A DNA stretch of 64,000 nt from Psammoneis japonica (lineage: Eukaryota), in contig QPGO01000078.1 of NCBI GenBank assembly GCA_008632985.1, positions 186,001 to 250,000 on the forward strand, read 5' to 3'. Below the pieces are notes generated by a model, which saw only the letters and a list, made by a program, of their open reading frames with translations, was not told where the DNA came from and searched no databases. The translations under genes were made by a program, and so were the position numbers. Positions within the stretch are counted from its first letter, which is position 1. Every line of letters starts with the position of its first letter. Of the stretch, positions 3,163-59,959 are shown one piece after another.

Positions 3163-3438
3163 TGACAGAAAATGAAGGCAAATGGCAAGAATTCAAACAA
3201 CAACTCCTTGCTGCTGTCTAAATGGCAGATGAGTCTCCGCTCAGAGACCGTCACAGGAGCCGAAGGACGTGCAAGTCGGCATAATCGGGCCACTGTTGTT
3301 ATTCTTGTGAGCCTTGTGGCTCAAAAGCAAACTACATCGCGCGCGAACGCGCGGAACTAAAGCACACAAAACTGTGCACGGTAAACTAAACAGCGCGCGA
3401 CACTTCGCGTGCATCCAAATCCTGTTCAAATCCTGTCA
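3163..3438 (-). repeat. 3' LTR (TpA-mutated copy)
   Basis: Aligns without gaps to 6331-6606 with 10 substitutions; TG...CA termini. Confidence 0.92.
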
Positions 3439-3445
3439 CTCCCCA
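3439..3445 (-). promoter_or_regulatory. Polypurine tract of the LTR element
   Basis: Plus-strand CTCCCCA reads TGGGGAG on minus, immediately before the 3' LTR. Confidence 0.65.
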
Positions 3446-3504
3446 GTTTGCTTGAGGAGTCACAGAAACAGATTCGACTTCGGATTGACTAAAGAACTTT
3501 GGAG

Positions 3505-5373
3505 TCAAAGCACCAAAACATGAGGAGACAAGAAAGGATCAAGATCCAAGAGCAACGTTGCATTCTCCAAGTGGGTCATCTTGAGATGAGCTGCGTCTCC
3601 CCAGTTGCAGATGCCGTTGTGCTTTTCAAAGCTCAAGGCACACTTGGGATCTTGTGGGATTCCACATCCGCACTTGCAATGGAAGGAGCAAAGCTTGGTC
3701 TGGTTGACAATGTTGAACGGCGGGGCAACATTGCAGGACAATGCAAACAAGTTGACATCGCCTTCACTTCCTGAGCGAAGGTCATAAAGACTGATGTCCG
3801 TCTGTTGGTTCTTGGGACAGTTGCCACACTGGGCTGCTGCTAGAAAAACAGAGCAGTGCTCGTGCAGGGTGGCATGGTGTTTGCACGACTCGGGGAACAG
3901 AGCAAGCATGAGTTCAAAGGCACAAGCAGTGGTCTTGTGTTCCACCAATCCGATTGCAAGCTCAGCTGCATCTCCTGAGAGACTGATCCAATTGGAGAAA
4001 CGAGTCTCAAGGTGCAAGCCTTCGGGGATCGGATTGGAGCAAGACATCTTGTGGTGCAAGGCTGCAGATGTCTGATTGGGGCAACCAGTCCCGTGCTGCA
4101 AGACTTCTGGGATCCAAAAGGACTTGCCAGTCTTGTGACACGAGTCTTCGGGGATCCAATCAGGAGGCCAAGTCTTGAGGTGCGAGACTTGGGGGATCCA
4201 ATCAGGAGGCCGAGTCTCGTGGTGCAAGACTTGCCGAGTCTTGAGGCATGAGATGTGGAGGATCCAATTGGGAGGCCCGGTCTTGAGGCACGAGACGTGG
4301 AGAGTCCAGTTGGGAGGCCTGGTCTCAAGGCACGAGACTTGGGGCATCCGATCAGGAGGCCCAGTCTCGATGTACGACACTTGGGGCATCCAATCAGGAG
4401 GCCCAGTCTCGAGGTGCGAGACTTGGGACATCCAATCAGGAGACCTGGTCTCGAGGTACGAGACTTGGGGCATCCAATCAGGAGGCTCAGTCTCTAGGTA
4501 CGAGACTTGAGGCATCCAATCAGGAGGCCTGGTCTCATGGTGCGATGCTTGGAGGATCCGAAGACAACAAAGCTGCTTGGATGTCCTGAACTCCCCATCT
4601 GATGAACCGGTTGAACTGTTGTGAACAGATTCAATGACGGGAAAAGGAGGCTCCCCATCAGGAGATGCAAGAAGCAAGTTGTCATCTCCATCACCTCCCA
4701 AATGAAGGCTGTGAAGGGTGACAGCGGTCGACACGTGGAGGTTGGCAGCAAGTGGTTTGCGGGGTGCAAAGGCTGTAGCTTTGGAAGCCATGGGTGGAGT
4801 GTCCCAACTGGTCTCGAAGTGCGGGTCTGTGCAAGGGCTGCAATCCTGCACTGGGCCGAGGTTGCTTGCAGGCGGGTTGGTCAAGACATGCGGGGCGCGA
4901 CTGACACCACTTCTAGGGGACACCTGAGTGGTGGCACAGTGCAAGGCTGGTGTCAAAATGGCACTGGGTTCACCTGGTTTGGATGGCAAGGGACTCGGCA
5001 CAGGTGCGGAGGGTGCTGTGCCAGTGGCTAGAGAGGTCAAGTGGTCCGGACCAAGGCGGCAGTTGCAAAATTCCTCGGGTGTGAGCAACTGGGGTTCATT
5101 GGTCACATCATCACCGTTGCAAACTTTGACAAAGTAGAAGCTGATCAAAGCTGCTAGGAGGTTTCTGTGGGTCCGTGGCAAAGGCACTACATTGGCGCCG
5201 TCTCTGCAAGTGAGGGCGTCAATTTGGGTGGGTGAAAACGTGAGCAATTCCTCGCACGATTCAATCCCGTTGATGGACAGGGCAGAACGAAGAGGGCTGT
5301 CATTGTCTTGATTGAGCACAGTGCCTAGAATGTATTTGAAGCTTTCGGTTTGTTGCTGTCGCGTGAGAACCAT
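3505..5373 (-). pseudogene. Gag-like ORF fused to 14-aa repeats and a residual pre-RT pol motif
   Basis: N-terminus MVLTRQQQTESFKYILGTVLNQDNDSPLRSALSINGI resembles CoDi gag. KCGCGIPQDPKCALSFEKHNGICNWGDA resembles the KxGYEIPxxYxxALxxDxxNGNxxWxDA segment preceding copia RT, with Y->C changes. Confidence 0.65.
3990..4540. repeat. 42-bp tandem repeat array (about 13 units, ETxPPDWxPQVSxL on minus)
   Basis: Recurrent GAGACTTGGGGCATCCAATCAGGAGGCC units; divergence increases toward lower coordinates. Confidence 0.9.
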
Positions 5374-6313
5374 GACGGAGGACGGTGCAGCAGAAACAAA
5401 AGACAAGATCCAATCTAGAGCGCGATCTTGACTCGGAGTTTTGACTTGGAACTTGGCTTGAAAAAGACTTGACTTGAGCTAGACTTGACTTGAAATCTTG
5501 GACCATCTTAAAATCAGAAGTGGCCGGGTTGTGCTGTCCCGTTCGTTGTTGAGTGCTAAACTTCCCATCCGGTCCGTAGAGTTGTGCCGGCACGTCCGAA
5601 CCCGCAGCTGGTGGCGCTTTGGGTTGCTTGCGAGCGGAGCAGCGGGTTGTAAACCCCTGCAGGTGAGCTGACCAGAGGTGGACAAGACCCCCGAACCGTT
5701 CTCATTTTATGTCGGTTGGATTTCCCGATCAGGCTGGCCAGTTGACGCAGGCGTTGGGCGCTGTGGACGAACGAACAAACGCGGGAAAAACACCCTCGCC
5801 CCAATGCAGGCTGTGGTCACGGCTGCTTGCTCTCACAGTCGTCCTCGTGGACCTAGTAGAACTGTAGAGCACCAGTAGTCCGGGGTAGATCAGGTGCAAT
5901 GGACTCGGTGTGCTTGTAGAGTGGCAGCAAAACCGCAATCCGAAGAGTGGGTACAAGTTCTTGGCCGTGAAGATATGTATATATATATATGTCTTCAGCG
6001 ACGAAGGTCCTTGAATATGTAGGGTTCTTGACCGTTAACCGATGAATGGGTATATCAAGGGATGAGGATCAAGGATAGACTTGGATATGACCGTTGAATG
6101 TATGTCTTCAGCGATCAAAGGTAGTATAATCAATCCAGATATCCAGCGGTAAGGAGACTTGACGGTGACGTTAACTTCCTGCCGATGCCCTGGTATTGAA
6201 TGCGCGTAGACTTGCCGATGTATGTAGGATATATACAGAGGTCCACGTAGAATTGAAATAGCGTCGTTGGTAAATCAACGACGACGATGGCGGTTGCTCA
6301 ATGGGTTGACAAT

Positions 6314-6330: not shown

Positions 6331-6606
6331 TGACAGAAAATGAAGGCAAATGGCAAGAATTCAAACAATAACTCCTTACTGCTGTCTAAATAGCAGATGA
6401 GTCTCCGCTCAGAGACCGTTACAGGAGCCGAAGGACGTGTAAGTCGGTATAATCGGGCTACTGTTATTATTCTTGTGAGCCTTGTGGCTCGAAAGCAAAC
6501 TACATCGCGCGCGAACGCGCGGAACTAAAGCACACAAAACTGTGCACGGTAAACTAAACAGCGCGCGATACTTCGCGTGCATCCAAATCCTGTTCAAATC
6601 CTGTCA
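6331..6606 (-). repeat. 5' LTR (TpA-retaining copy)
   Basis: Direct repeat of 3163-3438 that retains 9 TA dinucleotides lost in the other LTR. Confidence 0.92.
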
Positions 6607-9340
6607 AGGAGTGTGGTGGCAAATCTGCATGAGACTCTGCCAGTGCTGCCAAATTTGTTTTAATCAGTGGCTTGCCCATCACTTGACACCAGTTTGCCAA
6701 TGTTGCAGAATCAATTTCCGAGGCTTTCCACACTTTGTCAGATGGCCACACACACTTGAGTTCTTTGTGTGTTTGTTCAAGGTGGCACTCCAACAGAGCA
6801 GTGTCCACAGCCAAACTTGGCAACAACAGTTTGCTTGTGCCTTCTGTTGTTTGTTCATTTCCCTTGTGGCGCTTCAAAGGACATTGTTGGCATGGGACGG
6901 AGGAGGAGAACGGTTTGACATTGATGTTGAAGGTCAGGCTGTGTGATGATTTAGGTGGAGATGCCAATTTGGGCTTGCACAGCTCTTTCTGTCTGTTTGA
7001 TGGAATTTTGTTGTTCATTTTGGGAGAAGTGAATTGCATTGTGTGTTTCACAATGTGCACCAATGAGGTGTTGTGAGCAACCTTGTTCTGGAGATTGACA
7101 ATTTGGTGTTTTGTGATTTTAGTCACAACACAACATTTCAATTTGGAGCTTGCTGTGGCAATTCATTCATTGTGGAAAGACATTGATCCTCGGCAATGTT
7201 GCAACTCTCTCTTCAATCTTCATGAGCAAGGAACAATCTGTGGCATCATCATTGTTGATTCAATGTCTCAGAACATTCCAAATGGAATGTTTGCGATGGC
7301 CACATGGTTCAACACCATGCAGAAAGGCCAGCACAAACACCACAAACACAATGTCAACAGCAACAAATGGAGCACAGACCAGCTCATGAGTGACTCAGAA
7401 TTGCCGCAGCTCATTCAATGACTTTGCCACCCTCAAATAGACAGGGAACAAATTCTTGTAGAGGAACGCAATGTCTTTGATGATCTGCTGCAAAGGGGTG
7501 TTGCTCAGATGCAGTGTCCATCAGGGAGAGTCACACCTCTGCCCAGTGCTCCATTTGCTCATGCGGATGCAACCAGCATTTCCCTGGAGACCATGTCTTC
7601 ATAAGAACTGAATTGGGCATGTGCTCATGTGCAAAGCAACTCCAGCAGACAGGGCCATGGTTGTGGATCAGGCATCTCCAAGCTGAGTGCACTTTGGGAC
7701 ATGCAATGGTTGCAGCACCTGGAGGCATCCATTGAACATCAGGTCACTTGCTCAAGCAGAGGTGGACTCCAGTGTGAACATCACATGGGATCTTAACTGC
7801 AACCATCCAAAGGTTGTTTTGTTCTTGCTGGCAATCTTTGCACACAGACATCTGGACAGTGACCTGAGATGCAAAGGAAGGCGGGCAACGGGGAAGGGCA
7901 CAAAGGCAAGCTGAAGCAATGCATGAGACAAAATTGTAAGAAAAACAAGACATGTGTAAAAACTGATCATTGGCACAAAGCTTTGTCCAGTTGCAGGCAA
8001 CATTTTGGCTGACTAAACAGAAGGAATGTGTGTGATCATTGGAGGATGATGTTGTTGCCTGGTGCAGACTGTTGTGGAGAGAGTGAGAGTGGTGGCAAGG
8101 GAGAACACAGGGATCAAAACATCAAACCCTTTGGGTCAATTGTGGTGCACATTTGTTGTGCATTGGAGAATGCAGACCACCATGCAGAGCAGCAACCCTC
8201 TCATTTTTGAAAACACTTGTCGGCATCACAACATCATGACAAGCTTGTGCAGTGATTTCGTCACTTCCTTTTGAGCCTCTGCATTGCTTTTTGTTTCATT
8301 GCATTTGCTTTTTTTTGAAGAAAGGTCTGCACTCTTCATTGCACAAAGATTCAAAGTGCAAAAAGAGCTGCCCTCTGCAATTGCCAACTTGCTTGGTCAG
8401 AAAATCCAGATGGAAGCTCATGTGCATGCACATGATTTTTGTGCACATTCCTGAGCAGCTGCACACTGTAGACAGGGCATCTTGAGCAAATGTTGGGAAA
8501 GAAGGGTGGAATGAGGTCAGCAAGCAACCACCATTTTGCCAGCTGCAATGCTGGTGTGGCAATCTTGCAAAACTTTGCTTGTGTGGCTGTGGCCCTCCCC
8601 ACTGGCTGCTGGCTTGGTTGACAAGAGCAACCCAAAATTGTGCTGGAAGACATGTTAAAAGCACTTCAATGCCATGCAAGCTCAGGCAGGTGCAGTGATG
8701 GAGTTCATCAGAGAGAATGTCCACAGTTTGAAGGAGAGGGAGTGAGGTGCTGCAAGCTGCTCACCAGTCTTGTGTGTTTGATGGACGCCATTCTTTCCTC
8801 TGGAATGTGTCTTGCAATCTGGCCACTTGCTCGACTCAGGCATTCTTCGCCAGCACGAAGAAGAAAACAAGCAACCTCTGAATTGGACAGCTCAGATGGG
8901 ATCTCACATGTGCAGGCAGTGGTGGGAGTGAACTTTGGGAGGATCATGACACTTTGGTTCACAGGCACGATGTCGACTCTAGAAAGTCTTCCCAGCAGCA
9001 TTGCGCAGAAGCAGAGTTGACCGTGACACACAACAAACGTCAGGAGCATTTGGCGAAAGATCAAGGAGTCTCATCAGATGCATCAGCAGAACACAAGACA
9101 TTTTCAACCACCAGAAGGCAGAATTAGATCGCCATGGTTCGCCCCAGATTGAAAGAAAGTTTGAAGGAAGCAAAAAGATTGGCCCTTCGCAGCACTCACG
9201 CCATTGCCAGCTGTTTCCGTTGGGCATCTCTGTCTGGTGGAGGTGCCACAACTGGCCAATCGCACTGTCTTCTGTCACACACCTGGCGGGGTGTGCTGGA
9301 AGTGTGGATTAGCCGGCCCCGGGGTTGCAGGGCAAAGGCG
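6607..9340. other. Heavily decayed TA/CG-depleted repeat-like block, family not assignable
   Basis: Very few TA or CG dinucleotides, Cys/His-rich broken ORFs; continuous with 1973-3162 across the LTR insertion. Confidence 0.5.
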
Positions 9341-10907: not shown

Positions 10908-11938
10908 CATGTATCAGTAGACGGATTGCCTAGGTGCTTCTAGGTACGCTTTAGTTGATGGGTAACAGATCTCTCAAGATTAGCTTTAGAGAGATAGTAG
11001 ATGTTTACATATACAGCTGGGGCTCTACTCTATGTTTTTCCGTGTCATTTTTTACAACAACGTGACGGAGAAGAGAAAAGAGATACTTCAGCGACCCACA
11101 AGGACGAATTAACTGCCACTTCCATAGGGCAGATATAACGGATGATTTTGGATACGACCCATGTCGTAGCCTTCCTCCTCATCAAAGTGACGACTAAGAA
11201 AGTGTTCCACATGCCCAGCCGTTTCATTTGTTGTACTCTGACGAAAGACTCCATGACGAGCCTTCCAAAATTACAAGTTCATAGACACGTTCATAGGCGG
11301 ACGAAAGTTCCAGATTAGAAGCTCCTAGACACCGAGACAATGCGTCGTCGGTGTTTGTCTACGTAGTATATTTTATCGATCTCACCGAGTCGAACACAGT
11401 TTGGAAGCGGCAGAAAGGAGTAAATAACATGAACCATGAGAGGCACATTGTCTCTCATCGAATTTGGTTATGCTTTGGGATCATCCAGGGCATCCGCAGC
11501 AACAGTGTTGACGATGCTCTGGCCCTGGTCATCTTCCTGGCTTGCTCACTACAAGCGTTTCTGGGGCTGCTCCTGAAACGTGTTGTCCTCCATTTTCCCT
11601 CTCTCTCTCTCTCTCGTCTGTATCTCTTTTTGGTACTTCTACTCCACCCGGAGTTTTTGAGTTTCTCTACAGCCTCCTGCAAGAAGAAAGTCGAAAACTG
11701 TAACTACTAGTACTAGCTGGCTAGCTAGCTAGAGAGTCTAGAGAGCCATCTTTCGCTTTCCGGCAACGTGATGCGCGCTTCGTAGTCTTAATTAGGAGAT
11801 GAGTATTATTACGAGATTGCTGACAATTTAAAACCCATAGACTGCGCAAGAGGCTGTTATTGGATTTGTTGCGACGATGCGATCAAGTCAATAAGCTATG
11901 TAGTTGCCATCAAAAGTCTCGCGGTTTTCTTTTTCGCT

Positions 11939-12550
11939 TTATTTTCGCATACCCCAGTCAAAGTTCTTTGGAGCTGACATCCACTTTGGCTTCAGTTCTA
12001 ATATTTTTTCAAAGACGGGACAAGACTTTGCGTGAGCGCCGGGTAAATATCCCAGGCTCATTAAAAACTCTGTTGTGATTTCACCACCCGTAAATTTGAA
12101 TGTCTTTTTAAAGAGTGCTACCCAATCATCTTTCGAAAGAGGGTGATTGGCATCAAGCCATGCTTCAAAGGAACCGTGGCTCTTTTGGAGTTCCAAGATT
12201 CGATTTGCATTGAAGATTGCTGCATTGATTTTTAATTTGTTCCTAATGACTCCAGGATCTTGACGAAGGCGCTCGATATCTTCTTGCTCATAGGCTGCAA
12301 CGAGACTTATGTCAAAGTCATTGTACGCCTCACGAAACGATTCCTGCTTCTTCAAAATTGTCAACCAACTCAAACCAGCCTGGTTGATTTCCAGCACGAG
12401 TCGCTCAAACAAGGCATTGTCGTCTCCACGAATAGGGAAGCCGTAGTGCTTGTCATGGTATGGACCGTGCCATTCATGTCCGTCTGCAGCTTCGCAATAA
12501 GAATTGGGTGGAAGTTTTGGTTTGCTTTCTTTCGTCTTGGCGGCGGACAT
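11939..12550 (-). CDS. tag: DNA-3-methyladenine glycosylase I
   Basis: Motifs YHDKHYGFP, LFERLVLEINQAGLSWLTILKK, IRNKLKINAAI and C-terminal H..CP. An upstream in-frame ATG exists at 12634. Confidence 0.93.
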   Translation of the reverse strand: MSAAKTKESKPKLPPNSYCEAADGHEWHGPYHDKHYGFPIRGDDNALFERLVLEINQAGLSWLTILKKQESFREAYNDFDISLVAAYEQEDIERLRQDPGVIRNKLKINAAIFNANRILELQKSHGSFEAWLDANHPLSKDDWVALFKKTFKFTGGEITTEFLMSLGYLPGAHAKSCPVFEKILELKPKWMSAPKNFDWGMRK

Positions 12551-13118
12551 AATGACGGTTGCAAAATCAACGTATGAACCTGCTGATGTGATTGCTCGGG
12601 AAAGAGATGAAAATGCCAATGGATAAGCTCTCATGAGATGCTTACGATGCGGCTTCGTAGTTCTGGTACATCAATCGCATCCTCAATGTCATAGCGGATT
12701 CAGGATGTTGTTCCAACAAGTTCCCTGTCGCCCGTCGTCGGTCGTCGGTCGTCGCTCTTGGATTTTTGATCTTTGTGCCTCTACCGTACTACTCCCCGAT
12801 CCAGATCTTCCGCGCGCGCGAAAGTAGCGTGCAGTGCGTCGCCTACCTGTCAGGATTTTGCGGGGGGGGGGCGCTGTTTTTACTTAAGGCCCCCCCACGA
12901 AATTCAACCTCATTTAAGCACCTGTGACATCCCCCCCCCTCATACAAAAAATCCGTAGAAGTGACAGTCGTCGTCGCGCGCCATCTTTTTGGCCTTTTTC
13001 TGGAACGCCTTTCATAACAACGACCCTCATCGTTGTTGCAAGTGCGCACTTCATACTTCATCGATGCCTTTCCTTTTCAACAAGGGTTTGTCAAGAGCCC
13101 CTTTGTATTCTCATTGCC

Positions 13119-16100
13119 ATGCCTGCACTTGAAACAATGGGGCCGAAAAGCCAGTCAAGTCCTTCGCGTCTGAAGAAGTTGAAGCAAAATGCATCGAGGC
13201 CGACGCCCCACCCCTTGAACAAGAGCACGAAAGAGGGTGAAGCGGAGCGACGTAGAAAGCAAAAGGAAATTGACGAAGCTAATGAATTCAAATGGAGGTG
13301 CGATCAACACAAGAAAAGCAAGAAGATTCGTGAAAAAGTCACAACTCGGGTTGACTTCGGAACGAAAACGTGCAAACGGTGTGTCACAGGGCCGGGTCAC
13401 AAGAAGGGTCACGACGACATGTGCCACAAGAATCCAAATACTTCAAATTACAAGCCACCAGAGAAAATTGTCATTCAAGTTCTGAAAGAGGTGGAGCCAG
13501 ATTTCCTCATGGCACTGCCACAAGATTGCAGAAACAATCTCATCGCGAGGAGCCTTTTGGAAAGATCTTTTTTCTCTTCGCCGGAGGGAAGTGCAGAAAG
13601 TGTACAAGAAGCATTTTTCGATGTGTCTGAGTCCTTGGTAGATTCTAATCCACCCAGTGACAACAACAATTCAGTTGGGGATGCTCTCAGCAGCGTTGAA
13701 TCCAAGGATGTGTTGAAGCCGTTGCTGTGCAAGAAAATGACTGCGTCGCATCTAAAAAAAGCGACACCCGCCGTGATGTCGACGTGGAGCACAAGTGAGA
13801 AAGAGCAACTCGCTCAAGACAACACAAAAGTGCCGCTTCCAATTTTGGCATTGCTGGAATTCATTCACATGCAACGCCCAAGAGTTTGCACCGATTCCAA
13901 TGGCGCCAAGAAGCTTGGTGGAGGTGAACAACGTATTTCTTGGTGCCGCGACCACTTTCCGCGTGGAAATGTTGCGTTCACGGTGCCGTTGGCGGGTGGG
14001 AAAGAAAATGAAGTTCCCGACCCAATGTGTGAGTCCATTCAAGGCTCAACAACATGTTTGACTCGGTGGGAACTGAACATGCCAGACTTGCCATTGAAGT
14101 GTTTTTCATGTGGCGACGGATTTCTGGAGCACACGAGGGTAGAGTGCGGCAGCACCAGGTTTGCAAGCAGTGCGACGCCCGTTTTCAGAATGAAAGGTCA
14201 CACGGGTTGGGAGCATGGCATCACATGCAAGTGCTCTAATTGTGGAGAGCTTGTCAAGTCGTGTGATGGTAGACTGCCACGTTGTTCTCTACAAGACTGT
14301 GCACGTCGAAGCTTCCCAGTAGATCCCTTGCATTGCTCGAAGCCATCCTTCTTCTTGCTTCACGAAGAGGTGTCCTTTCTGCTGGAGGAGGCTGCTCTAA
14401 CAGAATCAAGTGCACAGTGGGTGTCACGAACGCTCTTCCGAAGTCAAAACCATCGGCACGAAGAACTGGAACTGTCACATTGCAGCTCTGACAAGAGTTG
14501 TGAGGACAAACCTTTTCCAGACTTTCCATCAATTGAAGAGTGGCGAGGACAGTGTCCGCCATCAAGTGCTCAGTTGCCAGATCTTTGCGAAGCAGCCAAC
14601 TCCTCCGATCTCACAGCGTGTGGCGTGAGCGACGACGACCGTCACAAGAGAGAAATGCAGTCATGCGGCTGCGAAACTTCTACAGCCTTCGATCACACCC
14701 ACGCAATGTTGAGCAACTGCCCATCATCACTGGGCGCTCAAGCTTGTGCCACTCAGTCAACTGATGCGGGATTCATTGCCTGGCTTGGACTTGTCGACTC
14801 TACCGCAATGTCAGACAGTGCCCACGGCATCGAGCAAACTGCAAGATGGCCAAACTTTAACCCGAAGCATGTGCACACGGATGCATGGCCCAATCTTGAT
14901 CCATTCTTCAAGACAACACACGGATTTGCAACAATCGGTCGACTTGGCTCATTCCATGCAATTCAGCGCGTCACCAAGTTCATGCGGAAAGATCACAAGG
15001 ATTTCAACAAAGCTCTCCGCTCTTTCTTGAGCTGCCTGTACAGTCTGAACCAAGAGGATGAAGCAGCCGCAGTGGCAACACTACGAGACGGGACAATGAA
15101 TGGCCGCATCCACCAGCCTGATGAGATCTCGGATTTGCAGCACAGCAAGAAGTGGATGGACCGCTGTGGGCAGCACATCCGAAAGATTCCTGTTCCAGGA
15201 GAGCTCGCGAGGATTAAGTTGAGGGACTGGTGGTGCCCATGCAAAGTGAGCAACAGTGATGGTGAGCCAGCAGGACAAGGAGAGCTGGACAATGGGAAAA
15301 CCCTGTTCATGGAAGGAGCAAGACAAGCAGTGAGAGCGTTGACGGAAAAAGCTCAGCATCTGCCAGAGATTGTTGGCGACTGCCACAAGAAACTCACCGC
15401 ATCTGCCCGATCGAAACACAAACTACCGCGATGCATTTCTGAAAAGGGTGAGTCTTCATTGGAGAAGTTTCACCATCTGTCAGCTCATTTTGGAAACATG
15501 GGCATGCGGCGAACGCTCGCCGACAGTTTGAACCTCCGTGGCATGTGTCGACACAATCTCAAGCTGTGGCACAAACTATTCGGAAGAAATGCACCCGAGA
15601 TCCCAAGCCATTTTCAAACTGAACCCATTCATTACAACCATCTCAAGTTGCTAGAGATCAACCGGAGGTCCGCCAAGCATGGATCCAAAGCACCGCGGCA
15701 TGAGAATCTACGAGATTGCCCAGAGTGCAGGGGCGAAGAGTTTTTGTCCGAGTGCCTTTTGTCGCAAAGAAAGAGACGAGCACAATGTCCACCCCATCCA
15801 ACCAACAGTCGCTGCCAATGCCCCAAATGTGCTGCAAATCCGATGCCTCTTCCTCACATCCAACGAGCCATTTCACGTGAGCAGTCGGCGGCATCTGCAG
15901 TGGCGCCAAATGAAACGGCACCTGTGAACAATGACACTGGTGACTTTGACACTGCTGAGTTTGGTGTCGACTTTGATGAGCAAGAGCATCATTCTGTGTT
16001 TGAAGACACTCCTCCTCAAGAGCAACTTCCCCAAGAAACACGAATGATCCGCGACTTTGCCGCACAGGACGCCTTCCAAAGGCATCAAGAATTGAATTCC

Positions 16101-16439
16101 GCGCCGCCTGCCCCAATCCTCCCCATGCCGGCACCAGCTCTGCCATTGCTGCCTCTGCTGCCTGTTCCTGTAACAAATTCACCAATGTCATTGCAGCAAC
16201 CTTTGGGCCCACCTGCTGTTGCGTCGTCGATGCCACATTCAACCTGCTGCCAACCCGTTTCTCTTGGGACAGCGAGTTTTGCAGCATCTGCTCCTGTGCT
16301 GCCATCCGCTGTCACTCCAGCTACAAAGAGACGAAAGGTCAAAGAAGAAGAATGCTGCTGTGAGGGAAGAAAAAATCATGTCGAAAATGGTCGTCGGGGG
16401 CGGGTCGCTCACACCTTGTGGTGCAACCGAGGAAAGTAA
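13119..16439 (+). pseudogene. Transposase copy 1, open but hypermutated
   Basis: FDHT, VHTDAWP, RLGxFHAIQR and KGESSLEKFH motifs plus CxxC pairs; only 3 Tyr in the 1171-aa ORF (manual count). Confidence 0.75.
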
Positions 16440-17713
16440 GGCGTTCTTGGTGTCTTTTTGTTTTGTTCTTTTTTCCATTTGTGTTGGCACACATCACATT
16501 GCCACTTCCCAGTGCAGATGCATTAATTCAGGATTAGGATCCAACACAGTGGCAACAAACATTTTACACTTGTGTGGTTGCACCGGTCCACCACACCAAC
16601 CATCACCATGCCGCACCGACCAACATTGACGGCATGGACAGCACGGACACCGAGGTCCCATAAAGCCGGTAGCCTGTCGCAGCCCCACAGCAGAAACAAA
16701 GGAGTGGAAACAACAAAATTGAGAACACGACAACAAAGAAACAGACCCATGACACTCGACACATTTCTGTCACCTTACATCAATGCTTTTGGAGTGCCCT
16801 CGTGGTGCTTGTGGTTGATTGCATCAAGCAACACTGTCGGCCGAAAACAAAACAAAACACTGTCCAATTGAAAGGAATGGAAACAACAGAAATGTAGAAG
16901 GTGCCATCAAAGAAACAACCCCATCACACTCGACACATTCACATCACCTTGTCTTAATGATTTCGGTGCGTCCTCACAGTCCTTGTGGTTCATTGTTAGC
17001 AGCAATCTTGTCGGCGGCAGAAAACAAAACTCAAAACACACGCTCCATTTAAACACAATGGAGACAAAAGAAATTTAGGAGACACCAACAAAAAAATACA
17101 ACCATCATGCTCAACACAGTCTTTGTGCCTTGTGTCAATGCTGTTGACCCTCGCATCGTCACAGTGATGGTCGATTCATGAACGGAGCTAGTCGCCATTG
17201 TGCTGCGACGGTTCGAGGGTGGTGCGGCAAGTGCGCGTGAGGATTTTTCCCACTGCATGCAGTGTCTTTTCTGTCTGTCCATTAGCGAGTGGTCTTGAAC
17301 GTTGCTGAGTCATAAATGGCTTGAAGACAAAATCATTCTTAAATGTTGCATCGTCATAATTGGGGATTGCTGAGTCACAATTCACTGAAGGCATGATGTG
17401 ATTGGCTGAAAATGCAGCGCACAAGAATGGGACAATGGTGCGCGATTTTGCGGGGGGGGGGGGGGCACTGTTTTTACTCAAGGCCCCCCCATGAAATTCA
17501 ACCTCATTTAAGCACCTGTGACATCCCCCCCCCTCATACAAAAAATCCGTAGAAGTGACAGTCGTCGTCGCGCGCCCATCTTTTTGGCCTTTTTCTGGAA
17601 CGCTTTTCACAACAACGACCCTCATCGTTGTTGCAAGTGCGCACTTCACACTTCATCGACACCTTTCCTTTTCAACAAGGGTTTGTCAAGAGCCCCTTTG
17701 CATTCTCATTGCC

Positions 17714-20700
17714 ATGCCTGCACTTGAAACAATGGGGCCAAAAAGCCAGTCAAGTCCTTCGCGTCTGAAGAAGTTGAAGCAAAATGCATCGAGGCCGACG
17801 CCCCACCCCTTGAACAAGTGCACGAAAGAGGGTGAAGCGGAGCGACGTAGAAAGCAAAAGGAAATTGACGAAGCTGACAAATTCAAATGGAGGTGCGATC
17901 AACACAAGAAAAGCAAGAAGATTCGTGAAAAAGTCACAACTCGGGTTGACTTCGGAACGAAAACGTGCAAACGGTGTGTCACAGGGCCGGGTTGCAAGAA
18001 GGGTCACGACGACACGTGCCACAAGAATCCAAACACTTCAAATTACAAGCCACCAGAGAAAATTGTCATTCAAGTTCTGAAAGAGGTAGAGCCAGATTTC
18101 CTCATGGCACTGCCACAAGATTGCAGAAACAATCTCATCACGAGGAGCCTTTTGGAAAGATCTTTTTTCTCTTCGCCGGAGGGAAGTGCAGAAAGTGTGC
18201 AAGAAGCATTTTTCGATGCATCTGAGTCCTCAGTAGATTCTAATCCACCCAGTGACAACAACAATTCAGTTGGGGATGCTCTCAGCAGCGTTGAATCCAA
18301 GGATGCATTGAAGCCGTTGCTGCACAAGAAAATGACTGCGTCGCATCTAAAAAAAGCGACACCCGCCGTGATGTCGACGTGGAGCACAAGCAAGAAAGAG
18401 CAACTCGCTCAAGACAACATAAAAGTGCCGCTTCCAATTTTGGCATTGCTGGAATTCATTCACATGCAATGCCCAAGAGTTTGCACCGATTCCAATGGCG
18501 CCAAGAAGCTTGGTGGAGGTGAACAACGTATTTCTTGGTGCCGCGACCACTTTCCGCGTGGAAATGTTGCGTTCACGGCACCGTTGGCAGGTGGGAAAGA
18601 AAATGAAGTTCCCGACCCAATGTGTGAGTCCATTCAAGGCTCAACAACATATTTGACTCGGTGGGAACTGAACATGCCAGACTTGCCATTGAAGTGTTTT
18701 TCATGCAGCGACGGATTTCTGGAGCACACGAGGGTGGAGTGCGGCGGCACCAGGTTTGCAAGCAGTGCGACGCCCGTTTTCAGAATGAAAGGTCACACGG
18801 GTTGGGAGCATGGCATCACATGCAAGTGCTCTAATTGTGGAGAGCTTGTCAAGTCGTGTGATGGTAGACTGCTGCGTCATTCTCTACAAGACTGCGCATG
18901 TCGAAGCTTCCCAGTAGATCCCTTGTATTGCTCGAAGCCATCCTTCTTCTTGCTTCACGAAGAGGTGTCCTTTCTGCTGGAGGAGGCTGCTCTGACAGAA
19001 TCAAGTGCACAGTGGGTGTCACGAACGCTCTTCCGAAGTCAAAACCATCGGCACGAAGAACTGGAACTGTCACATTGCAGCTCTGACAAGAGTTGCGAGG
19101 ACAAACCTTTTCCAGACTTTCCATCAATTGAAGAGTGGCGAGGACAGTGTCCGCCATCAAGTGCTCAGTTGCCAGATCTTTGCGAAGCAGCCAACTCCTC
19201 CGATCTTACCACGTGTGGCGTGAGCGACGACGACCGTCACAAGAGAGAAATGCAGTCACACGGCTGCGAAACTTCTACAGCCTTCGATCACACCCACGCA
19301 ATGTTGAGCAACTACCCATCATCACTGGGCGCTCAAGCTTGTGCCACTCAGTCAACTGATGCGGGATTCATTACCTGGCTTGGACTTGTCGACTCCACCG
19401 CAATGTCAGACAGTGCCCACGGCATCGAGCAAACTGCAAGACGGCCAAACTTTAACCCGAAGCATGTGCACACGGATGCATGGCCCAATCTTGATCCATT
19501 CTTCAAGACAACACACGGATTTGCAACAATCGGTCGACTTGGCTTGTTCCATGCAATTCAGCGCGTCACCAAGTTCATGCGGAAAGATCACAAGGATTTC
19601 AACAAAGCTCTCCGCTCTTTCTTGAGCTGCCTGTACAGTCTGAACCAAGAGGATGAAGCAGCCGCAGTGGCAACACTACGAGACGGGACAATGAATGGCC
19701 GCATCCACCAGCCTGATGAGATCTCGGATTTGCAGCACAGCAAGAAGTGGATGGACCGCTGTGGGCAGCACATCCGAAAGATTCCTGTTCCAGGAGAGCT
19801 CGCGAGGATTAAGTTGAGGGACTGGTGGTGCCCATGCAAAGTGAGCAACAGTGATGGTGAGCCAGCAGGACAAGGAGAGCTGGACAATGGAAAAACCCTG
19901 TTCATGGAAGGAGCGAGACAAGCAGTGAGAGCGTTGACGGAAAAAGCTCAGCATCTGCCAGAGATTGTTGGTGACTGCTGCAAGAAACTCACCGCATCTG
20001 CCCGATCGAAACACAAACTACCGCGATGCATTTCTGAAAAGGGTGAGTCTTCATTGGAGAAGTTTCACCATCTGCTGGCTCATTTTGGAAACATGGGCAT
20101 GCGGCGAACGCTCGCCGACAGTTTGAACCTCCGCGGCACGTGTCGACACAATCTCAAGCTGTGGCACAAACTGTTCGGAAGAAATGCACCCGAGATCCCA
20201 AGCCATTTTCAAACTGAACCCATTCATTACAACCATCTCAAGTTGCTAGAGATCAACCGGAGGTCCGCCAAGCATGGATCCAAAGCACCGCGGCATGAGA
20301 ATCTACGAGATTGCCTGGAGTGCAGGGGCGAAGAGTTTTTGTTCGAGTGCCTTTTGTCGCAAAGAAAGAGACGAGCACAATGTCCACCCCATCCAACCAA
20401 CAGTCGCTGCCAATGCCCCAAATGTGCTGCAAATCCGATGCCTCTTCCTCACATCCAACGAGCCATTTCACGTGAGCAGTCGGCGGCATCTGCAGTGGCG
20501 CCAAATGAAACGGCACCTGTGAACAATGACACTGGTGACTTTGACGCTGCGTCATTCTCTGCAAGACTGCGCACGTCGAAGCTTCCCAGTGGATCCCTTG
20601 CATTGCTCGAAGCCATCCTTCTTCTTGCTTCACGAAGAGGTGTCCTTTCTGCTGGAGGAGGCCACTCTAACAGAATCAAGTGCACAGTGGGTGTCACGAA

Positions 20701-22796
20701 TGCTCTTCCGAAGTCAAAACCATCGGCACGAAGAACTGGAACTGTCATGTTACAGCTCTGACAAGAGTTGCGAGGACAAACCTTTTCCAGACTTTCCATC
20801 AATTGAAGAGTGGCGAGGACAGTGTCCGCCATCAAGTGCTCAGTTGCCAGATCTTTGCGAAGCAGCCAACTCCTCCGATCTTGCCGCGTGTGGTGTGAGC
20901 AATGACGACCGTCACAAGAGAGAAATGCAGTCATGTGGCTGCGAAACTTCTACAGCCTTCGATCGTGCCCACGCAATGTTGAGCAACTGCCCATCATCAC
21001 TGGGCGCTCAAGCTTGTGCCACTCAGTCAACTGATGCGGGATTCATTGCCTGGCTTGGACTTGTCGACTCTACCGCAATGTCAGACAGTGCCCACGGCAT
21101 CGAGCAAACTGCAAGACGGCCAAACTTTAACCCGAAGCATGTGCACACGGATGCATGGCCCAATCTTGATGCATTCTTCAAGACAACACACGGATTTGCA
21201 ATGATCGGTCAACTTGGCTCATTCCATGCAATTCAGCGCGTCACCAAGTTCATGCGGAAAGATCACAAGGATTTCAACAAAGCTCTCCGCTCTTTCTTGA
21301 GCTGCCTGTACAGTCTGAACCAAGAGGATGAAGCAGCCGCAGTGGCAACACTGCGAGACGGGACAATGAATGGCCGCATCCACCAGCCTGATGAGATCTC
21401 GGATTTGCAGCACAGCAAGAAGTGGATGGACCGCTGTGGGCAGTGCATCCGAAAGATTCCTGTTCCAGGAGAGCTCGCGAGGATTAAGTTGAGGGACTGG
21501 TGGTGCCCATGCAAAGTGAGCAACAGTGATGGTGAGCCAGCAGGACAAGGAGAGCTGGACAATGGAAAAACCCTGTTCATGGAAGGAGCGAGACAAGCAG
21601 TGAGAGCGTTGACGGAAAAAGCTCAGTGTCTGCCAGAGATTGTTGGCGACTGCTGCAAGAAACTCGCCGCATCTGCCCGATCGAAACACAAACTGCCGCG
21701 ACACATTTCTGAAAAGGGCGAGTCTTCATTGGAGAAGTTTCGCCATCTGCCAGCTCTTTTTGGAAACATGGGCATGCGGCGAACGCTCGCCGACAGTTTG
21801 AACCTCCGCGGCACGTGTCGTCACAATCTCAAGCTGTGGCACAAACCATTCGGAAGAAATGCACCCGAGATCCCAAGCCATTTTCAAACTGAACCCATTC
21901 ATTGCAACCATCTCAAGTTGCCAGAGATCAACCGGAGGTCCGCCAAGCATGGATCCAAAGCACCGCGGCATGAGAATCTACGAGATTGCCCGGAGTGCAG
22001 GGGCGAAGAGTTTTTGTCCGAGTGCCTTTTGTCACAAAGAAAGAGACGAGCACAACATCCACCCCATCCAACCAACAGTTGCTGCCAATGCCCCAAATGT
22101 GCTGCAAATCCGATGCCTCTTCCTCACATCCAACGAGCCATTTCACGTGAGCAGTCGGCGGCATCTGCAGTGGCGCCAAATGAAACGGCACCTGTGAACA
22201 ATGACACTGGTGACTTTGACGCTGCTGAGTTTGGTGTCGACTTTGATGAGCAAGAGTGTCATTCTGTGTTTGAAGACACTCCTCCTCAAGAGCAACTTCC
22301 CCAAGAAACACGAATGATCCGCGACTTCGCCGTGCAGGACGCCTTCCAAAGGCATCAAGAATTGAACTCCGCACCGCCTGCCCCAATCCTCCCCATGCCG
22401 GCACCAGCTCCACCATTGCTGCCTCTGCTGCCTGTTCCTGCAACAAATTTGCCAATGTCATTGCAGCAACCTTTGGGCCCACCTGCTGTTGCATCGTCGA
22501 TGCCATGTTCAACCTGCTGCCAACCCGTTTCTCTTGGGACAGCGAGTTTTGCAGCATCTGCTCCTGTGCTGCCATCCGCTGTCACTCCAGCTGCAAAGAG
22601 ACGAAAGGTCAAAGAAGAAGAATGCTGCTGTGAGGGAAGAAAAAATCATGTCGAAAATGGTCGTCGGGGGCGGGTCGCTCATGCCTTGTGGTGCAACCGA
22701 GGAAAGCAAGGCGTTCTTGGTGTCTTTTTGTTTTGTTCTTTTTTCCATTTGTGTTGGCACACATCACATTGCTGCTTCCCAGCGCAGATGCATTAA
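17714..22796 (+). pseudogene. Transposase copy 2, frameshifted by internal duplication, stop codon lost
   Basis: ORFs 17555..20761 and 20526..22796. The TAA of copy 1 (16437) is CAA at 22707, giving read-through. Confidence 0.75.
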
Positions 22797-24205
22797 TTCA
22801 GGATTAGGATCCAACACAGTGGCAACAAACATTTTGCACTTGTATGATTACACCGGTCCACCACACCAACCATTGCCGTGCCGCACCGACCAACATTAAC
22901 GGCACGGACAGCACGGACACCGAGGTCCCACAAAGCCGGCAGCCTGTCGCAGCCCCACAGCAGAAACAAAGGAATAGAAACAACAAAATTGAGAACACGA
23001 CAACAAAGAAACAGACCCATGACACTCGACACATTTCTATTGCCTTATATCAATGCTTTTGGAGTGCCCTCGTGGTGCTTGTGGTTGATTGCATTAAGCA
23101 ACACTGTCGGCCGAAAACAAAACAAAACACTGTCCAATTAAAAGGAATGGAAACAACAGAAATGTAGAAGGTGCCATCAAAGAAACAACCCCATCATACT
23201 CGATATATTCATATTACCTTGTCTTAATGATTTCGGTGCGTCCTCACAGTCCTTATGGTTCATTGTTAGCAGCAATCTTGTCGGCGGCAGAAAACAAAAC
23301 TCAAAACACACGCTCCATTTAAACACAATGGAAACAAAAGAAATTTAGGAGACACCAACAAAAAAATACAACCATCATACTCAACACAGTCTTTATACCT
23401 TATATCAATGCTGTTAACCCTCGTATCGTCACAGTGATGGTCGATTCATGAACGGAGCTAGTCGCCATTGTGCTGCGACGGTTCGAGGGTGGTACGGTAA
23501 GTGCGCGTGAGGATTTTTCCTACTGCATGCAGTGTCTTTTCTGTCTGTCCGTTAGCGAGTGGTCTTAAACGTTGCTGAGTCATAAATGGCTTGAAGACAA
23601 AATCATTCTTAAATGTTGCATCGTCATAATTGGGGATTGCTGAGTCATAATTCACTGAAGGCATGATGTGATTGGCTGAAAATACAGCGTACAAGAATGG
23701 GACAACGGTACGCTTCCAAGTTCTCCCTGCGAGCCTGTAGGGTCAAATTATGACCTAAGAGTTCTCGATATGCCAATCGACGTTAATTAATTACTTTTTA
23801 TAGCACTGCACAATTAGGTAGATCTTTAGGAACAATGTCTCATGCTTATGACTTATAGGCCATTAATAAATATGCAATGTTATGTTGTGGAGATCTCACA
23901 ACTAACAACACATTATAAATGTTAATTTTTATTTAAAGGTAAATTGAAAACCCCCATAAACATCGAAACTAACGAAGCTGCCATTCTTCGATTTCGGACA
24001 TTTTTCAATTCATCAAAAATGCGAACCCCTGCAAAAAGACAAATGCAAAACACGAAATACTGTGTACTGTGTACCGTACTAAAATTGGCAAACGATAAGA
24101 TCGATCATCAAGATAAGAGTGACACCAAGCCGAAGGACAAAAAATAGATTCAGGAATACCTATTCATCACGCACTCTCCACACCGCACGACCGTGGAACA
24201 AAGGA

Positions 24206-26071
24206 ATGATGATCTTGTTTAGGTGCTGCACATTGGTGTTCGTCGTGACATCCTTCACTTCTTCCACAGCACAAAGAGCGACGAAGCCTAATTTCATCCT
24301 CATCATGACGGATGATCAAGGTATAGATGATTATGGCTTTCGCCAGCCGCCGCTGGAGACACCAAACTTGGACAAGCTAATGAAAGATGGGGTACAATTC
24401 ACCCGATTCTACACGGGAACCGCATGCGCTCCCACCCGGTCTCAGCTAATGACAGGAAGGCACTTTCTGCGCACGAAAACAGTTGGAGTAGGCTTCGGGA
24501 GAGATGCACCACATCTAAATGAGTACATGCTTGGAGAGGCCCTTCAGGATGCCGGATATGTTACTGGCATGGTTGGCAAGTGGAATCTCGGCACCTCAGA
24601 CGCTGAATTACCGCATCGACGAGGCTTCAACGAAACATGGGAGCTGACAGATGAAAGAACACGTAAAAACGGCAAGTATGAACACTTCAATGCCCCTTTT
24701 GCTCACAACGGTAAACCTCGTGGCATTGAGCCAGGCTGGCAGGTTGAGCGCGTCACAGACAAAGCTCTCCGTTTCATAAGCCGCAACAAGGAAGAACCTT
24801 TCTTTCTTTACATCCCTTACGCACAGCCACATGAGCCGTGGCTATGCCGAAAGGAACTCCAAGAAAAATACATTGAAAAAGGCATCGGAGAATCGTATGC
24901 TATGCTCCTTGGTATGCTGGAGCACATCGACATCCAAGTTGGGCGAATTCTTGATGCACTGGAGCGGCATCATCTCGCCAAAAATACCATAGTAATTTAT
25001 TTTGGAGACAACGGTCCCACTCCAAAAACAAGGCTCCTTGCTCAGGACTCAGATGGTAACTTCAGGCAAACTGGCGAACAGTATGAAATGAACGACACAG
25101 AATGGGCGGCACGCAATCCGACTGGTTTGCGATCTCAGAAGGCAACCGGTTGGGAAAACGCTGTTCGCAACCGGCTCTCCTTCTACTGTCCAGCTAGACT
25201 TAACACCAAAGTCGTCCAAGACATGATCATTGTATATGATATTTTTCCAACGTTGCTCCAATTAGCCGGGCATTACCACAGTTACAAGAAAAAAACTGGT
25301 GTGCCACGCTTGGATGGCCGAAGTTTTCAGCGCTTGCTTTTTCAAGACAACCCCGGCTGGCCGCAAGAACGTGAGTACCTTGTTGCAAAGCTCGGAATGC
25401 CTGCTAATCATCTGGCTCCAGATGGTTGGTACTACCGCTTTACTAAGGAGTATTCTCTTCGATTAGAGAGGTCGGAATGCGCACTTGTTTCAGGTCACTG
25501 GGTGGTCGTCAACGAAGAAGGCACATGGAGTTTGTACGACCTTTCGAGTGATCCCAGCCAGGAGAACGACCTCAAAACGGCCCTTCCTGAAAAGTTTCTT
25601 CAAATGGAAAATAGATTTTATTCTGTGCTATACGATGTAAACAACGACACGCATTCGTGGTCAAACCCAATCCAAGTAATTGGCCTTCCAGGCATTGAAC
25701 ACCCATACTTGGAGATGTTTTATGCATATCGCTTCAAGGGTAGGAGCAGAGTTTCATGGTCTTATACGTTCTTTGAAGATGTCGGGGCCACTCAGGATCT
25801 GAGAGTTCATGCACTCGAGTCTGGTACATACGATGTGATGCTTCGCACCCGGCCTGCTCCTGCACGAACCCTTGTGCAGTTTCATGTCGGGAAACAAAAA
25901 AAGATTTCCCTCCTCAACTGGGACGGTCGGATGCATAACCTTGGAAAGTTTGACTTTGAAAAGGGGAATTACAACATTGGAATGACCATTGTTGAGTCGG
26001 GAAACCTCGAACAACTTCAAAGTATGCCCGTTTACAATATCCTCTTGAAGAAAGTGAGCGGAGACACGTGA
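24206..26071 (+). CDS. Secreted formylglycine-dependent (S1) sulfatase
   Basis: Signal peptide, PNFILIMTDDQG, CAPTRSQLMTGR (CxPxR), GKWNLG, GDNG; no intron needed. Confidence 0.93.
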   Translation: MMILFRCCTLVFVVTSFTSSTAQRATKPNFILIMTDDQGIDDYGFRQPPLETPNLDKLMKDGVQFTRFYTGTACAPTRSQLMTGRHFLRTKTVGVGFGRDAPHLNEYMLGEALQDAGYVTGMVGKWNLGTSDAELPHRRGFNETWELTDERTRKNGKYEHFNAPFAHNGKPRGIEPGWQVERVTDKALRFISRNKEEPFFLYIPYAQPHEPWLCRKELQEKYIEKGIGESYAMLLGMLEHIDIQVGRILDALERHHLAKNTIVIYFGDNGPTPKTRLLAQDSDGNFRQTGEQYEMNDTEWAARNPTGLRSQKATGWENAVRNRLSFYCPARLNTKVVQDMIIVYDIFPTLLQLAGHYHSYKKKTGVPRLDGRSFQRLLFQDNPGWPQEREYLVAKLGMPANHLAPDGWYYRFTKEYSLRLERSECALVSGHWVVVNEEGTWSLYDLSSDPSQENDLKTALPEKFLQMENRFYSVLYDVNNDTHSWSNPIQVIGLPGIEHPYLEMFYAYRFKGRSRVSWSYTFFEDVGATQDLRVHALESGTYDVMLRTRPAPARTLVQFHVGKQKKISLLNWDGRMHNLGKFDFEKGNYNIGMTIVESGNLEQLQSMPVYNILLKKVSGDT

Positions 26072-32457: not shown

Positions 32458-32606
32458 CTCTTTGACACGTTCTCCGAGCTGCCCTCCATCATTGCGGCGG
32501 CAACACTGAACACTGAGCCTTGCTCTAGAGTAGAGAGCTCTCTCTCTAGTAGCTAGAGCTAGTAGTAGTCGCTTGTTTTCACGATCGTTTCTTTTTAATT
32601 AATTAA

Positions 32607-35150: not shown

Positions 35151-35154
35151 TTGA

Positions 35155-35620
35155 CCCTTCAACCACCACTGCTTGAGGATGTGTGATGTGTCATGCAATT
35201 TTACAACAACACAATGAACACGGTGTGAAAATGTCATGTCGCGCAGAATCTACGTAAAGCATGCCAAGTGCATTTGCTCATTGGGAGCAAATCTCCACCG
35301 GCGGAGATTTGCTCCAAGGGTGTGGCATCATTGGTCTATTTGCGATGGCAATTCATGACAACCTGCATTGTCAAAGGTTGAGATTTAGTTCCTCTCTGTT
35401 CACAGATGCAGCTTGCAAAAAACCCAGTGTTAAAAGTCGACATTGAACTTTCTAAATCACAAAATGGGTTCCCTGAGATTTTTGGCGAGTGCGTGCTCCA
35501 AAACAAAATCGCGCAAATTTGACATTGTCCATGTCTGAGATTACTTCATTTGCTGTGTTTGTGACGTAAGGGAGCAAATCTCCACCCGTGGAGATTTGCT
35601 CAAGTCCGGTGGTTGAAGGG
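35155..35620. mobile_element. piggyBac-like non-autonomous element (MITE), 466 bp
   Basis: Perfect 13-bp TIR CCCTTCAACCACC...GGTGGTTGAAGGG with TTGA on both flanks (inferred mutated TTAA); two internal GAGCAAATCTCC hairpins. Confidence 0.8.
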
Positions 35621-47264: not shown

Positions 47265-47399
47265 TTCGTTGTCTTTTTGTTACGAGTGCACTGCTGTCAA
47301 GGTTTCTTTTTTCACAATGCGATGGCTTGGTCACACATAAAACGCGCAACACAAAAAAAGCGAACCACCATCAATCATCCAAAAAAAAAAATCAAAAAA

Positions 47400-56327: not shown

Positions 56328-56368
<41 letters not shown>

Positions 56369-59735: not shown

Positions 59736-59959
59736 CGCTCGTACAACTGCCGGTATGTTTGTGGGGAAACGCGGTCACAAACACCTTCAAAAGCCTCTCA
59801 CAGCTCTCCGGAAAACAAAACAACGAAGATCTTTTTCTTCTTTTGTGAGAGTATGTCGTACATGCGAGAAGCAATCCCCAAACAACACACGACGACACAC
59901 GAATCGGACTTGCTCTGCCGGCAGCATGGCCGCGGCGGCTTTCGATTGATTTTTTATAA

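Follow-up and report, generated by a model that had tools for sequence, protein, structure and literature searches.

The stretch of DNA analysed here (hereafter the window) comprises 64,000 nucleotides from the diatom Psammoneis japonica (assembly GCA_008632985.1, contig QPGO01000078.1, positions 186,001 to 250,000) and contains, at 12854-23713, a tandem array of a 4.59-kb unit that encodes a predicted DDE transposase and is poor in the dinucleotide TpA. Self-alignment and the junction sequences resolve the array into one full and two partial copies, all on the forward strand. Copy A (unit ~12854-17443, alignable span 12863-17443) is a full unit, copy B (17457-20550) is the 5' part and corresponds to 12863-15955 of A at 97.5% identity, and copy C (20555-23713) is the 3' part, corresponding to 14285-17443 of A at 96.2% identity; the junction between B and C cuts short both of them. 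Each copy has a long forward-strand open reading frame (ORF). ORF A (12924-16439), whose true start is likely the ATG at 13119, encodes 1171 amino acids (protein P0001) and ends in a TAA stop at 16437-16439, ORF B (17555-20761) continues out of frame beyond the B/C junction, and in ORF C (20526-22796) the ancestral stop now reads CAA (22707-22709), so that an earlier note on this DNA, made from its letters, was right in seeing the stop lost from the last copy.

The beginning of the unit (12854-12900, 17444-17490) consists of GATTTTGC with a G run of 10-14 bases, unequal in length between copies A and B, and a C run soon after, while the tail (16716-17145; 22986-23415) contains three direct sub-repeats, 174-181 bases long, that have diverged to 67-75% identity. 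Inverted repeats of at least 40 bases are absent from 11000-25000 (shorter or mutated repeats fall outside this threshold), no target-site duplication is obvious at the unit flanks, and a search for further family copies within the window returned one weak tblastn match (47784-48146). Contigs of sequencing run X1 end loosely at 12854 and 17435, indicating that elsewhere in the genome the unit also occurs between other flanking sequences. One X1 contig of 928 bases is a further copy, with 15 differences from copy A and a depth of 276, as against ~60 in unique flanking sequence.

The protein has many relatives (792 cluster representatives with E no higher than 1e-3, of which the best share 47-50% identity with it), including one named family member, from the diatom Cylindrotheca closterium. 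Pfam searches at E up to 0.1 gave no family for P0001 or P0003 and a single sub-cut-off match (Peptidase_C4) for P0002; among 30 relatives nothing scored above cut-off (weak DUF6729 matches in 2/30), and these searches matched the family to none of the curated hidden Markov models of Mutator and Mutator-like elements (MULEs). An AlphaFold model of the relative P0004 (50 aligned sequences, mean predicted local distance difference test score 82.4) has as its top Foldseek match the transposase of ISCth4, an IS256-family element (6xg8_A, E 7.8e-4, probability 1.00), followed by retroviral integrases, Mu transposase and Hermes. Residues D314, D377, E568 and E572 of P0004, presumably the catalytic D, D and E, are invariant across the 50 sequences, and the matching residues (D590, D653 and E843/E847 in P0001) are intact in the window copies. 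On the predicted structure the ORF product is a DDE transposase with an RNase H-like fold, a name that agrees with the earlier note and is justified at the level of the fold, not at that of membership in a curated family. It resembles the IS256 and Mutator-like DDE transposases in its best fold match and its invariant D, D and E columns, and differs from them in lacking Pfam matches above cut-off and inverted repeats of at least 40 bases, and in belonging to an unnamed family.

Differences between the copies are largely confined to pyrimidine-purine (YR) dinucleotides. Between A and B, apart from a single-base indel, there are 76 mismatches, of which 74 are transitions and 69 fall in YR classes: 18 are TA against TG or CA, 17 are CG against TG or CA, and 34 make up 17 sites at which one copy has CA and the other TG. 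The ORF part of A and C shows 87 mismatches (79 in YR classes, 18 discordant CA/TG sites), copies B and C show 57 (53 and 12, respectively), and where the three copies align together, 63 of the 67 transitions stand in a YpR context (binomial p 1e-14). Discordance between CA and TG requires a palindromic intermediate, either TA or CG; CpG decay at ~0.055 loss per copy predicts only ~0.25 such sites between A and B, where 17 are observed, which points to TA as the ancestral state. The same CA/TG double differences recur in the 928-base X1 contig. The inference of the earlier note that an ancestral TA had been hit independently in different copies after duplication is borne out by the 17, 18 and 12 discordant sites, and also by the tail of copy C, which retains 26 TAs that are lost from A.

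At the protein level these changes appear as an exchange of tyrosine for cysteine or histidine. The codons singled out by the earlier note read as it described (AAC TGC CC at 14714 in copy A, AAC TAC CC at 19309 in copy B; CAT TAC AAC at 15630 in copy A, CAT TGC AAC at 21900 in copy C), and its count of three tyrosines in the 1171 residues of ORF A is correct, with six in B and two in C. Tyrosine thus makes up 0.3-0.6% of the window copies, compared with 3.71 +/- 0.90% of 153 relatives, while cysteine and histidine reach 4.3-5.3% each (52 Cys and 51 His in ORF A) and together 8.7-10.1%, compared with 6.15% in the relatives. Consensus columns were taken from an alignment of the copies with 70 relatives. 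At the 20 columns with consensus tyrosine, copy A has tyrosine in 1, cysteine in 8 and histidine in 7, whereas it retains consensus cysteine in 14/14 columns and other consensus residues in 194/295 (Fisher p 6e-8); of the 57 codons that the copies contribute at the consensus-tyrosine columns, 39 read TGY or CAY and 5 read TAY. According to the earlier note, arginine in homologous transposases at most of the Cys/His-polymorphic positions would have pointed to CpG decay. Among 21 Y/C/H/R-polymorphic columns, each with at least 20 relatives aligned, the top residue of the relatives is tyrosine in 10 and arginine in 2, the latter two columns fitting plain CpG decay, R to C. The relatives thus carry tyrosine where the copies have cysteine or histidine, in keeping with the direction originally proposed. 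Four relatives from public metagenomes (P0052, P0008, P0130 and P0148) are likewise Tyr-poor and Cys/His-rich, a hint that the same process may be at work in other organisms.

The direction of change at the DNA level can be read from three pairs of duplicated sequences, all on the forward strand, in which one member lies in a TpA-depleted block and its partner in a normal block. In the first, the tail of copy A (16685-17443, mutated) has 12 TAs and the tail of copy C (22955-23713, spared) has 38; 26 sites are TA in C and TG or CA in A, beginning with a TA lost at 16705, and none shows the opposite. The second is a 662-bp duplicate (48309-48970, mutated; 49214-49877, normal) with 18 TA-to-TG/CA and 4 CG-to-TG/CA changes, and the third a 276-bp duplicate (3163-3438, mutated; 6331-6606, normal) with 9 TA-to-TG/CA changes and 1 CG-to-CA, in both cases with no reverse change. 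Taken together, the three pairs have 69 differences; at 53 of them a TA of the normal member faces TG (29) or CA (24) in the mutated one, and 7 are CG losses to TG/CA in the same sense, which makes 60 against 0 overall (p 2e-18). Per site, TA was lost at 53/76 and CG at 7/73, a roughly tenfold difference in rate. Because the TA-rich members match the TpA level of host DNA, the TA-poor members are the derived ones. A similar baseline is provided by metagenome loci of the family, where the TpA observed/expected ratio is at least 0.40 in 79/79 (median 0.58), compared with 0.15-0.26 in the window copies; these loci were found by a peptide pattern ending in tyrosine, which biases the set against Tyr-depleted relatives and suits it to use as a baseline only. 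A majority-rule polarisation of the three array copies, which had suggested C-to-T changes, was dropped, since the sites are near saturation and were hit in parallel. The third pair is a 276-base direct repeat (96% identity) that flanks a minus-strand ORF of 657 amino acids (3505-5478); the repeats look like the ends of a 3.4-kb element, of which the left repeat alone is TpA-depleted.

Dinucleotide observed/expected ratios show that the window as a whole is a mosaic. Depleted blocks (1-3150, 3400-5250, 6650-9250, ~13150-22950, 33150-49000, 53950-58450 and 59950-62050) total 39,307 of 63,263 counted bases (~60%) and have TpA ratios of 0.0-0.2 and TG/CA ratios of 1.3-1.9, while the normal blocks around host genes have TpA at 0.4-0.75, TG/CA at 1.0-1.25 and CpG at ~0.9-1.0. 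The block that covers the array (~13150-22950, TpA 0.09-0.20) extends from ~290 bp inside copy A to ~760 bp before the end of C. Copy A keeps in its head 4 TAs (12885-13106) that are gone from copy B, and since the head of A and the tail of C are both spared, the mutated domain evidently runs without regard to the borders of the repeat. Block 1-3150 appears to be old (TpA 0.01-0.08, CpG 0.06-0.13, TG/CA 1.8-1.9), and in this block, as in 6650-9250, 53950-58450 and 59950-62050, CpG too is nearly lost (0.02-0.15). Non-coding DNA is affected equally, the tail of the unit being hit as hard as the ORF.

What the blocks contain also differs. The normal blocks carry host genes for a methyladenine glycosylase, a sulfatase, a Tex-like protein, a BCS1-like AAA ATPase, a BTB protein and a fasciclin protein; for the BCS1-like and Tex-like genes every named eukaryotic relative is a diatom, the nearest named one being from Cylindrotheca (59-61%). 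Near-identical proteins were absent from the matches to both genes, although an annotated genome of the host, if present in the collection searched, should have supplied them. The depleted blocks contain DDE, Mutator-like and reverse-transcriptase ORFs together with many unassignable ones. ORFs of at least 200 amino acids with most of their length inside depleted blocks contain 0-0.9% Tyr, mostly 3-7% Cys and mostly 4-7% His, as against 1.1-4.5% Tyr and 0.2-2.4% Cys for ORFs in normal blocks; the exception is a border-straddling ORF at 32599-34125 (64% inside a depleted block), with 1.4% Tyr. This forward-strand ORF crosses the block border at ~33150, its 5' part having normal and its 3' part depleted TpA, and has a weak, sub-cut-off match to Mutator-like transposases (E 6.9e-6, 25.7 bits against a cut-off of 26.5). 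Pfam searches with 18 further depleted-block ORFs gave reverse-transcriptase and leucine-rich-repeat (LRR) matches only.

The largest depleted block, 33150-49000, holds the Mutator-like ORF, the reverse-transcriptase ORF and the LRR ORFs, and no tandem repeats were found in 33000-49500. Within it, 36000-40100 is a stretch of 59% G+C with a GC skew of ~+0.5, TpA observed/expected of 0.02-0.07 and long ORFs overlapping on both strands; it includes the reverse-transcriptase ORF (37174-38037, minus strand) and stops at a gap of 427 Ns (40137-40563). Two overlapping minus-strand ORFs at 43842-45018 encode leucine-rich-repeat domains (LRR_1, E 1.7e-20) and have 0% Tyr; they may belong to a mobile element or, alternatively, to a gene of host type that has come to lie within a hypermutated domain. 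The 3-methyladenine DNA glycosylase gene (11939-12670, minus strand) has normal TpA and lies 200-450 bases from the hypermutated array, a position that may well be due to chance.

Within TpA, the base that follows influences the outcome. Counted per strand, the A of TA was changed in 38/78 cases before a pyrimidine and in 15/74 before a purine (p 3e-4), and window-wide the density that remains in depleted blocks, as a fraction of that in normal ones, is 0.05 for RTAY, 0.17 for YTAY and RTAR, and 0.27 for YTAR (R, purine; Y, pyrimidine), as expected if the TAY motif is available on both strands in RTAY, on one in YTAY and RTAR, and on neither in YTAR. The preferred target, 5'-TAY-3', is the tyrosine codon, which accounts for the loss of tyrosine. 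Edits show no strand runs (13, 10 and 5 runs, where 13.9, 9.0 and 5.0 are expected), so the process does not seem to be processive on one strand. By our arithmetic, the 18 single and 17 discordant A-B sites correspond to a loss of ~0.8 of the sensitive TAs per copy since the split of A and B, a time span over which only 7 non-YR differences arose in 3.1 kb (neutral divergence ~0.2%). By this indirect estimate, TpA would change at a rate several hundred-fold above background, of the same order as the ~1000-fold excess in the alga Bigelowiella natans.

The spectrum also explains why the reading frames remain open. A change of A to G after T, or of T to C before A, never turns a sense codon into a stop and destroys TAA and TAG; among CpG changes only CGA to TGA would make one, and 19 CGA codons are left in ORF A. 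The open ORFs can thus be understood as a by-product of the mutational spectrum that needs no selection, and the contrast drawn by the earlier note between missense and nonsense change stands, the codons being TGY and CAY and the ORFs open.

We consider it very probable, from the sequence comparisons, that a process of the diatom host, bounded by domains, turns TpA into TpG or CpA in transposon-rich DNA; its direction, its context, its domain limits and its timing after duplication are established by comparison of copies and blocks. In such a process, TpA would become TpG or CpA according to which strand undergoes the A-to-G change, in place and within domains, after the copies had been laid down; through the preference for TAY, tyrosine codons would be the best coding target and would become cysteine (TGY) or histidine (CAY) codons. 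A slower decay of CpG to TpG or CpA in the same domains, probably by deamination of methylated cytosine, would proceed alongside, and the two together would leave old blocks with neither TpA nor CpG. The chemistry, judged by analogy, is most likely deamination of adenine in DNA. The transposase copies are presumably inactive, and the process may serve as a genome defence. The interpretation of the earlier note is thus supported with corrections: tyrosine codons are indeed lost, but as instances of the dinucleotide TpA, preferably TAY, which is hit equally in non-coding DNA; the transposase array is affected, but so are other elements, over ~60% of the window; and the contrast with RIP (repeat-induced point mutation, by which fungi defend themselves against repeats) in yielding missense and not nonsense codons holds, and the process is moreover domain-bounded and not triggered by repeats, since in the three pairs only one copy is mutated.

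Several observations, to which the bias of the metagenome baseline should be added, weigh against this account. Two conserved histidine columns are arginine in copy C (CAY to CGY), so that the restriction to TpA is not absolute. Copies A and B have 23 TAs in common, where a model with a single rate predicts ~2; rates must differ between sites or some sites must be protected, and the TAY preference explains this only in part. Some relatives are themselves partly Tyr-poor, P0052 keeping 35% of consensus tyrosines and having cysteine or histidine at another 35%, and the LRR ORF in a depleted block is possibly a host gene. All of this is drawn from one assembly, and X1, a DNA run and the only one listed as containing the stretch, with no RNA run beside it, may be its source sample and not an independent one.

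Other explanations fit parts of these data. Ordinary decay of methylated CpG, in which the cysteine (TGY) and histidine (CAY) codons descend from arginine codons (CGY), would account for 17 of the 69 classed A-B mismatches, the 7 polarised CG losses, the two R/C-polymorphic columns with arginine consensus and the poverty in CpG of the old blocks; as the main process it is contradicted and almost certainly wrong, given tyrosine consensus at 10 and arginine at 2 of the 21 polymorphic columns, some 0.25 discordant A-B sites expected against 17, and a TA loss about ten times faster per site, and it stands only as a minor, parallel process. The opposite direction, a RIP-like change of CpA to TpA that acted on the TA-richer copies and made TA and tyrosine the derived states, could draw on the majority-rule singletons in A and B, where C-to-T/G-to-A changes outnumber T-to-C/A-to-G by 21 to 9, and on the relationship of diatom DNMT4 enzymes to fungal RID (PMC9998398). 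We give it next to no credence, as it is the TA-poor copies that stand apart, those rich in TA having the TpA level of host genes, the singly kept tyrosines fall on columns 993 and 1173, which are conserved in the family (Tyr in 75% and 93% of relatives), and a process of this kind should create stops, none of which are seen, and enrich the TpA that is here depleted. Composition might instead reflect selection, either avoidance of UpA and CpG in RNA or a foreign origin with intrinsically low TpA. Viral and host RNAs are known to suppress both CpG and UpA, and the depleted blocks are mobile elements; yet of two identical sequences only a few kb apart one can be depleted and the other normal, conserved tyrosines of the transposase have been sacrificed, the loss is as heavy in the non-coding tail as in the ORF, and ~0.8 of the sensitive sites changed against a neutral divergence of ~0.2%, all of which makes selection very improbable.

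An artefact, with modified bases systematically miscalled or a spurious array assembled from collapsed or joined haplotypes, is suggested by the single source sample, the 427-N gap in the scaffold and a B/C junction that truncates both copies; should A and B be two alleles set end to end, their apparent duplication would in fact be allelic divergence. The independent hits on TA follow even with A and B allelic, however, separate X1 contigs in Logan reproduce the region as well as a further copy with the same CA/TG double differences, and the signal is domain-bounded, motif-specific and in agreement with a tyrosine loss at the protein level measured against unrelated data; we hold an artefactual origin to be no less improbable than selection. 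A final alternative retains the process and changes the chemistry: the thymine of 5'-RTA-3' would be modified (for example by oxidation of the TET/JBP type), mispair with G and give T-to-C directly. Modification of thymine in a TpA context occurs in dinoflagellates and kinetoplastids, the signature is strand-symmetric, so that A-to-G in TAY is indistinguishable from T-to-C in RTA, and strand runs are lacking (13 runs against 13.9 expected). This chemistry seems unlikely, though it deserves serious consideration; the sole study of the signature proposes an adenine deaminase resembling ADAT2, itself without proof.

That study, the one match in a literature search that found no report of such a process in diatoms, is a preprint on B. 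natans (Mettrop et al. 2026, bioRxiv 10.64898/2026.01.13.699255). According to its main text, 231 of 302 new nuclear mutations in mutation-accumulation lines lay in regions with giant-virus and virophage inserts. A-to-G and T-to-C changes made up 230 of these 231, every one of them at TpA. Per site and generation the rate came to ~6e-7, compared with 3.5e-10 outside these regions, and only some of the lines showed the activity. The viral region has a TpA Rho of 0.45, 124 small clusters occur genome-wide, and the TpA-depleted coding sequences are enriched for DDE and reverse-transcriptase domains, an ADAT2-like adenine deaminase being the proposed, unproven, agent (bioRxiv 10.64898/2026.01.13.699255). 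Both cases have in common a strand-dependent change of TpA to TpG or CpA, confined to discrete foreign or mobile regions and, in the window by indirect estimate, far above background, a depletion of TpA coupled with an excess of CpA and TpG, and DDE and reverse-transcriptase domains in the depleted coding sequences or ORFs. Among the 60 polarised YR changes in the window, 53 are TA to TG/CA, as a spectrum of the B. natans type requires, the remaining 7 being CpG losses. The two differ in host, B. natans being a chlorarachniophyte (a rhizarian) with giant-virus and virophage inserts and P. japonica a diatom (a stramenopile) with transposons that include a tandem array; in extent, the depletion here being near saturation (0.0-0.2 over ~60% of the window) as against 0.45; and in evidence, the rate being measured in mutation-accumulation lines there and estimated from sequence comparison here. 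A term search of the main text of the preprint found no mention of diatoms, CpG, tyrosine, stop codons or trinucleotide context, and the preference for a 3' pyrimidine, the loss of CpG, the replacement of tyrosine by cysteine or histidine and the stop-free outcome seen here are absent from it. By analogy, the process in the window is most likely of the same kind as in B. natans, and P. japonica would be the first diatom in which it is seen, there acting on transposons and near saturation.

Two better-known processes bear a partial likeness. Fungal RIP also riddles mobile elements with transitions and leaves a dinucleotide signature, but it changes C to T, mostly at CpA, so that TpA is enriched and stops are created, where here TpA is destroyed and no stops arise; it mutates both members of a repeat, whereas here one member can escape (60 against 0 in the three pairs). 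The decay of methylated CpG in silenced transposons produces the CG-to-TG/CA changes seen in the same blocks, and diatom transposons are CpG-methylated (PMC9998398), but these changes form a minority class and are about ten times slower per site.

For annotation, the finding means that gene callers will report as genes Tyr-free, Cys/His-rich ORFs, which homology searches relying on aromatic residues will miss. Affected DNA can be screened for in any assembly by a TpA observed/expected ratio below 0.2 combined with TG/CA above 1.4, or by ORFs with less than 1% Tyr. A natural A-to-G activity on chromosomal DNA, if real, would also be of interest to those who build base editors. The TpA hypermutation signature has appeared in print only once, in the 2026 preprint on one rhizarian alga, and its presence in another, distant host would mean that it is not peculiar to one species; new here are the TAY motif, the sharp borders cutting through repeats, the coding outcome and a loss that proceeds about ten times faster than the decay of CpG. 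If two hosts share the process, comparative genomics could be used to look for the enzyme among genes common to both and absent from diatoms that are free of the signature. With a slight leaning in its favour, we suggest that diatoms share with chlorarachniophytes a TpA-directed editing of DNA that, on transposons, goes to saturation with a 5'-TAY-3' preference; that this editing may be old and widespread among the stramenopiles, alveolates and Rhizaria (SAR) and would depend on an A:T-to-G:C editor of double-stranded DNA; and that it may act as a defence which kills genes by Tyr-to-Cys/His missense changes while intact-looking ORFs remain.

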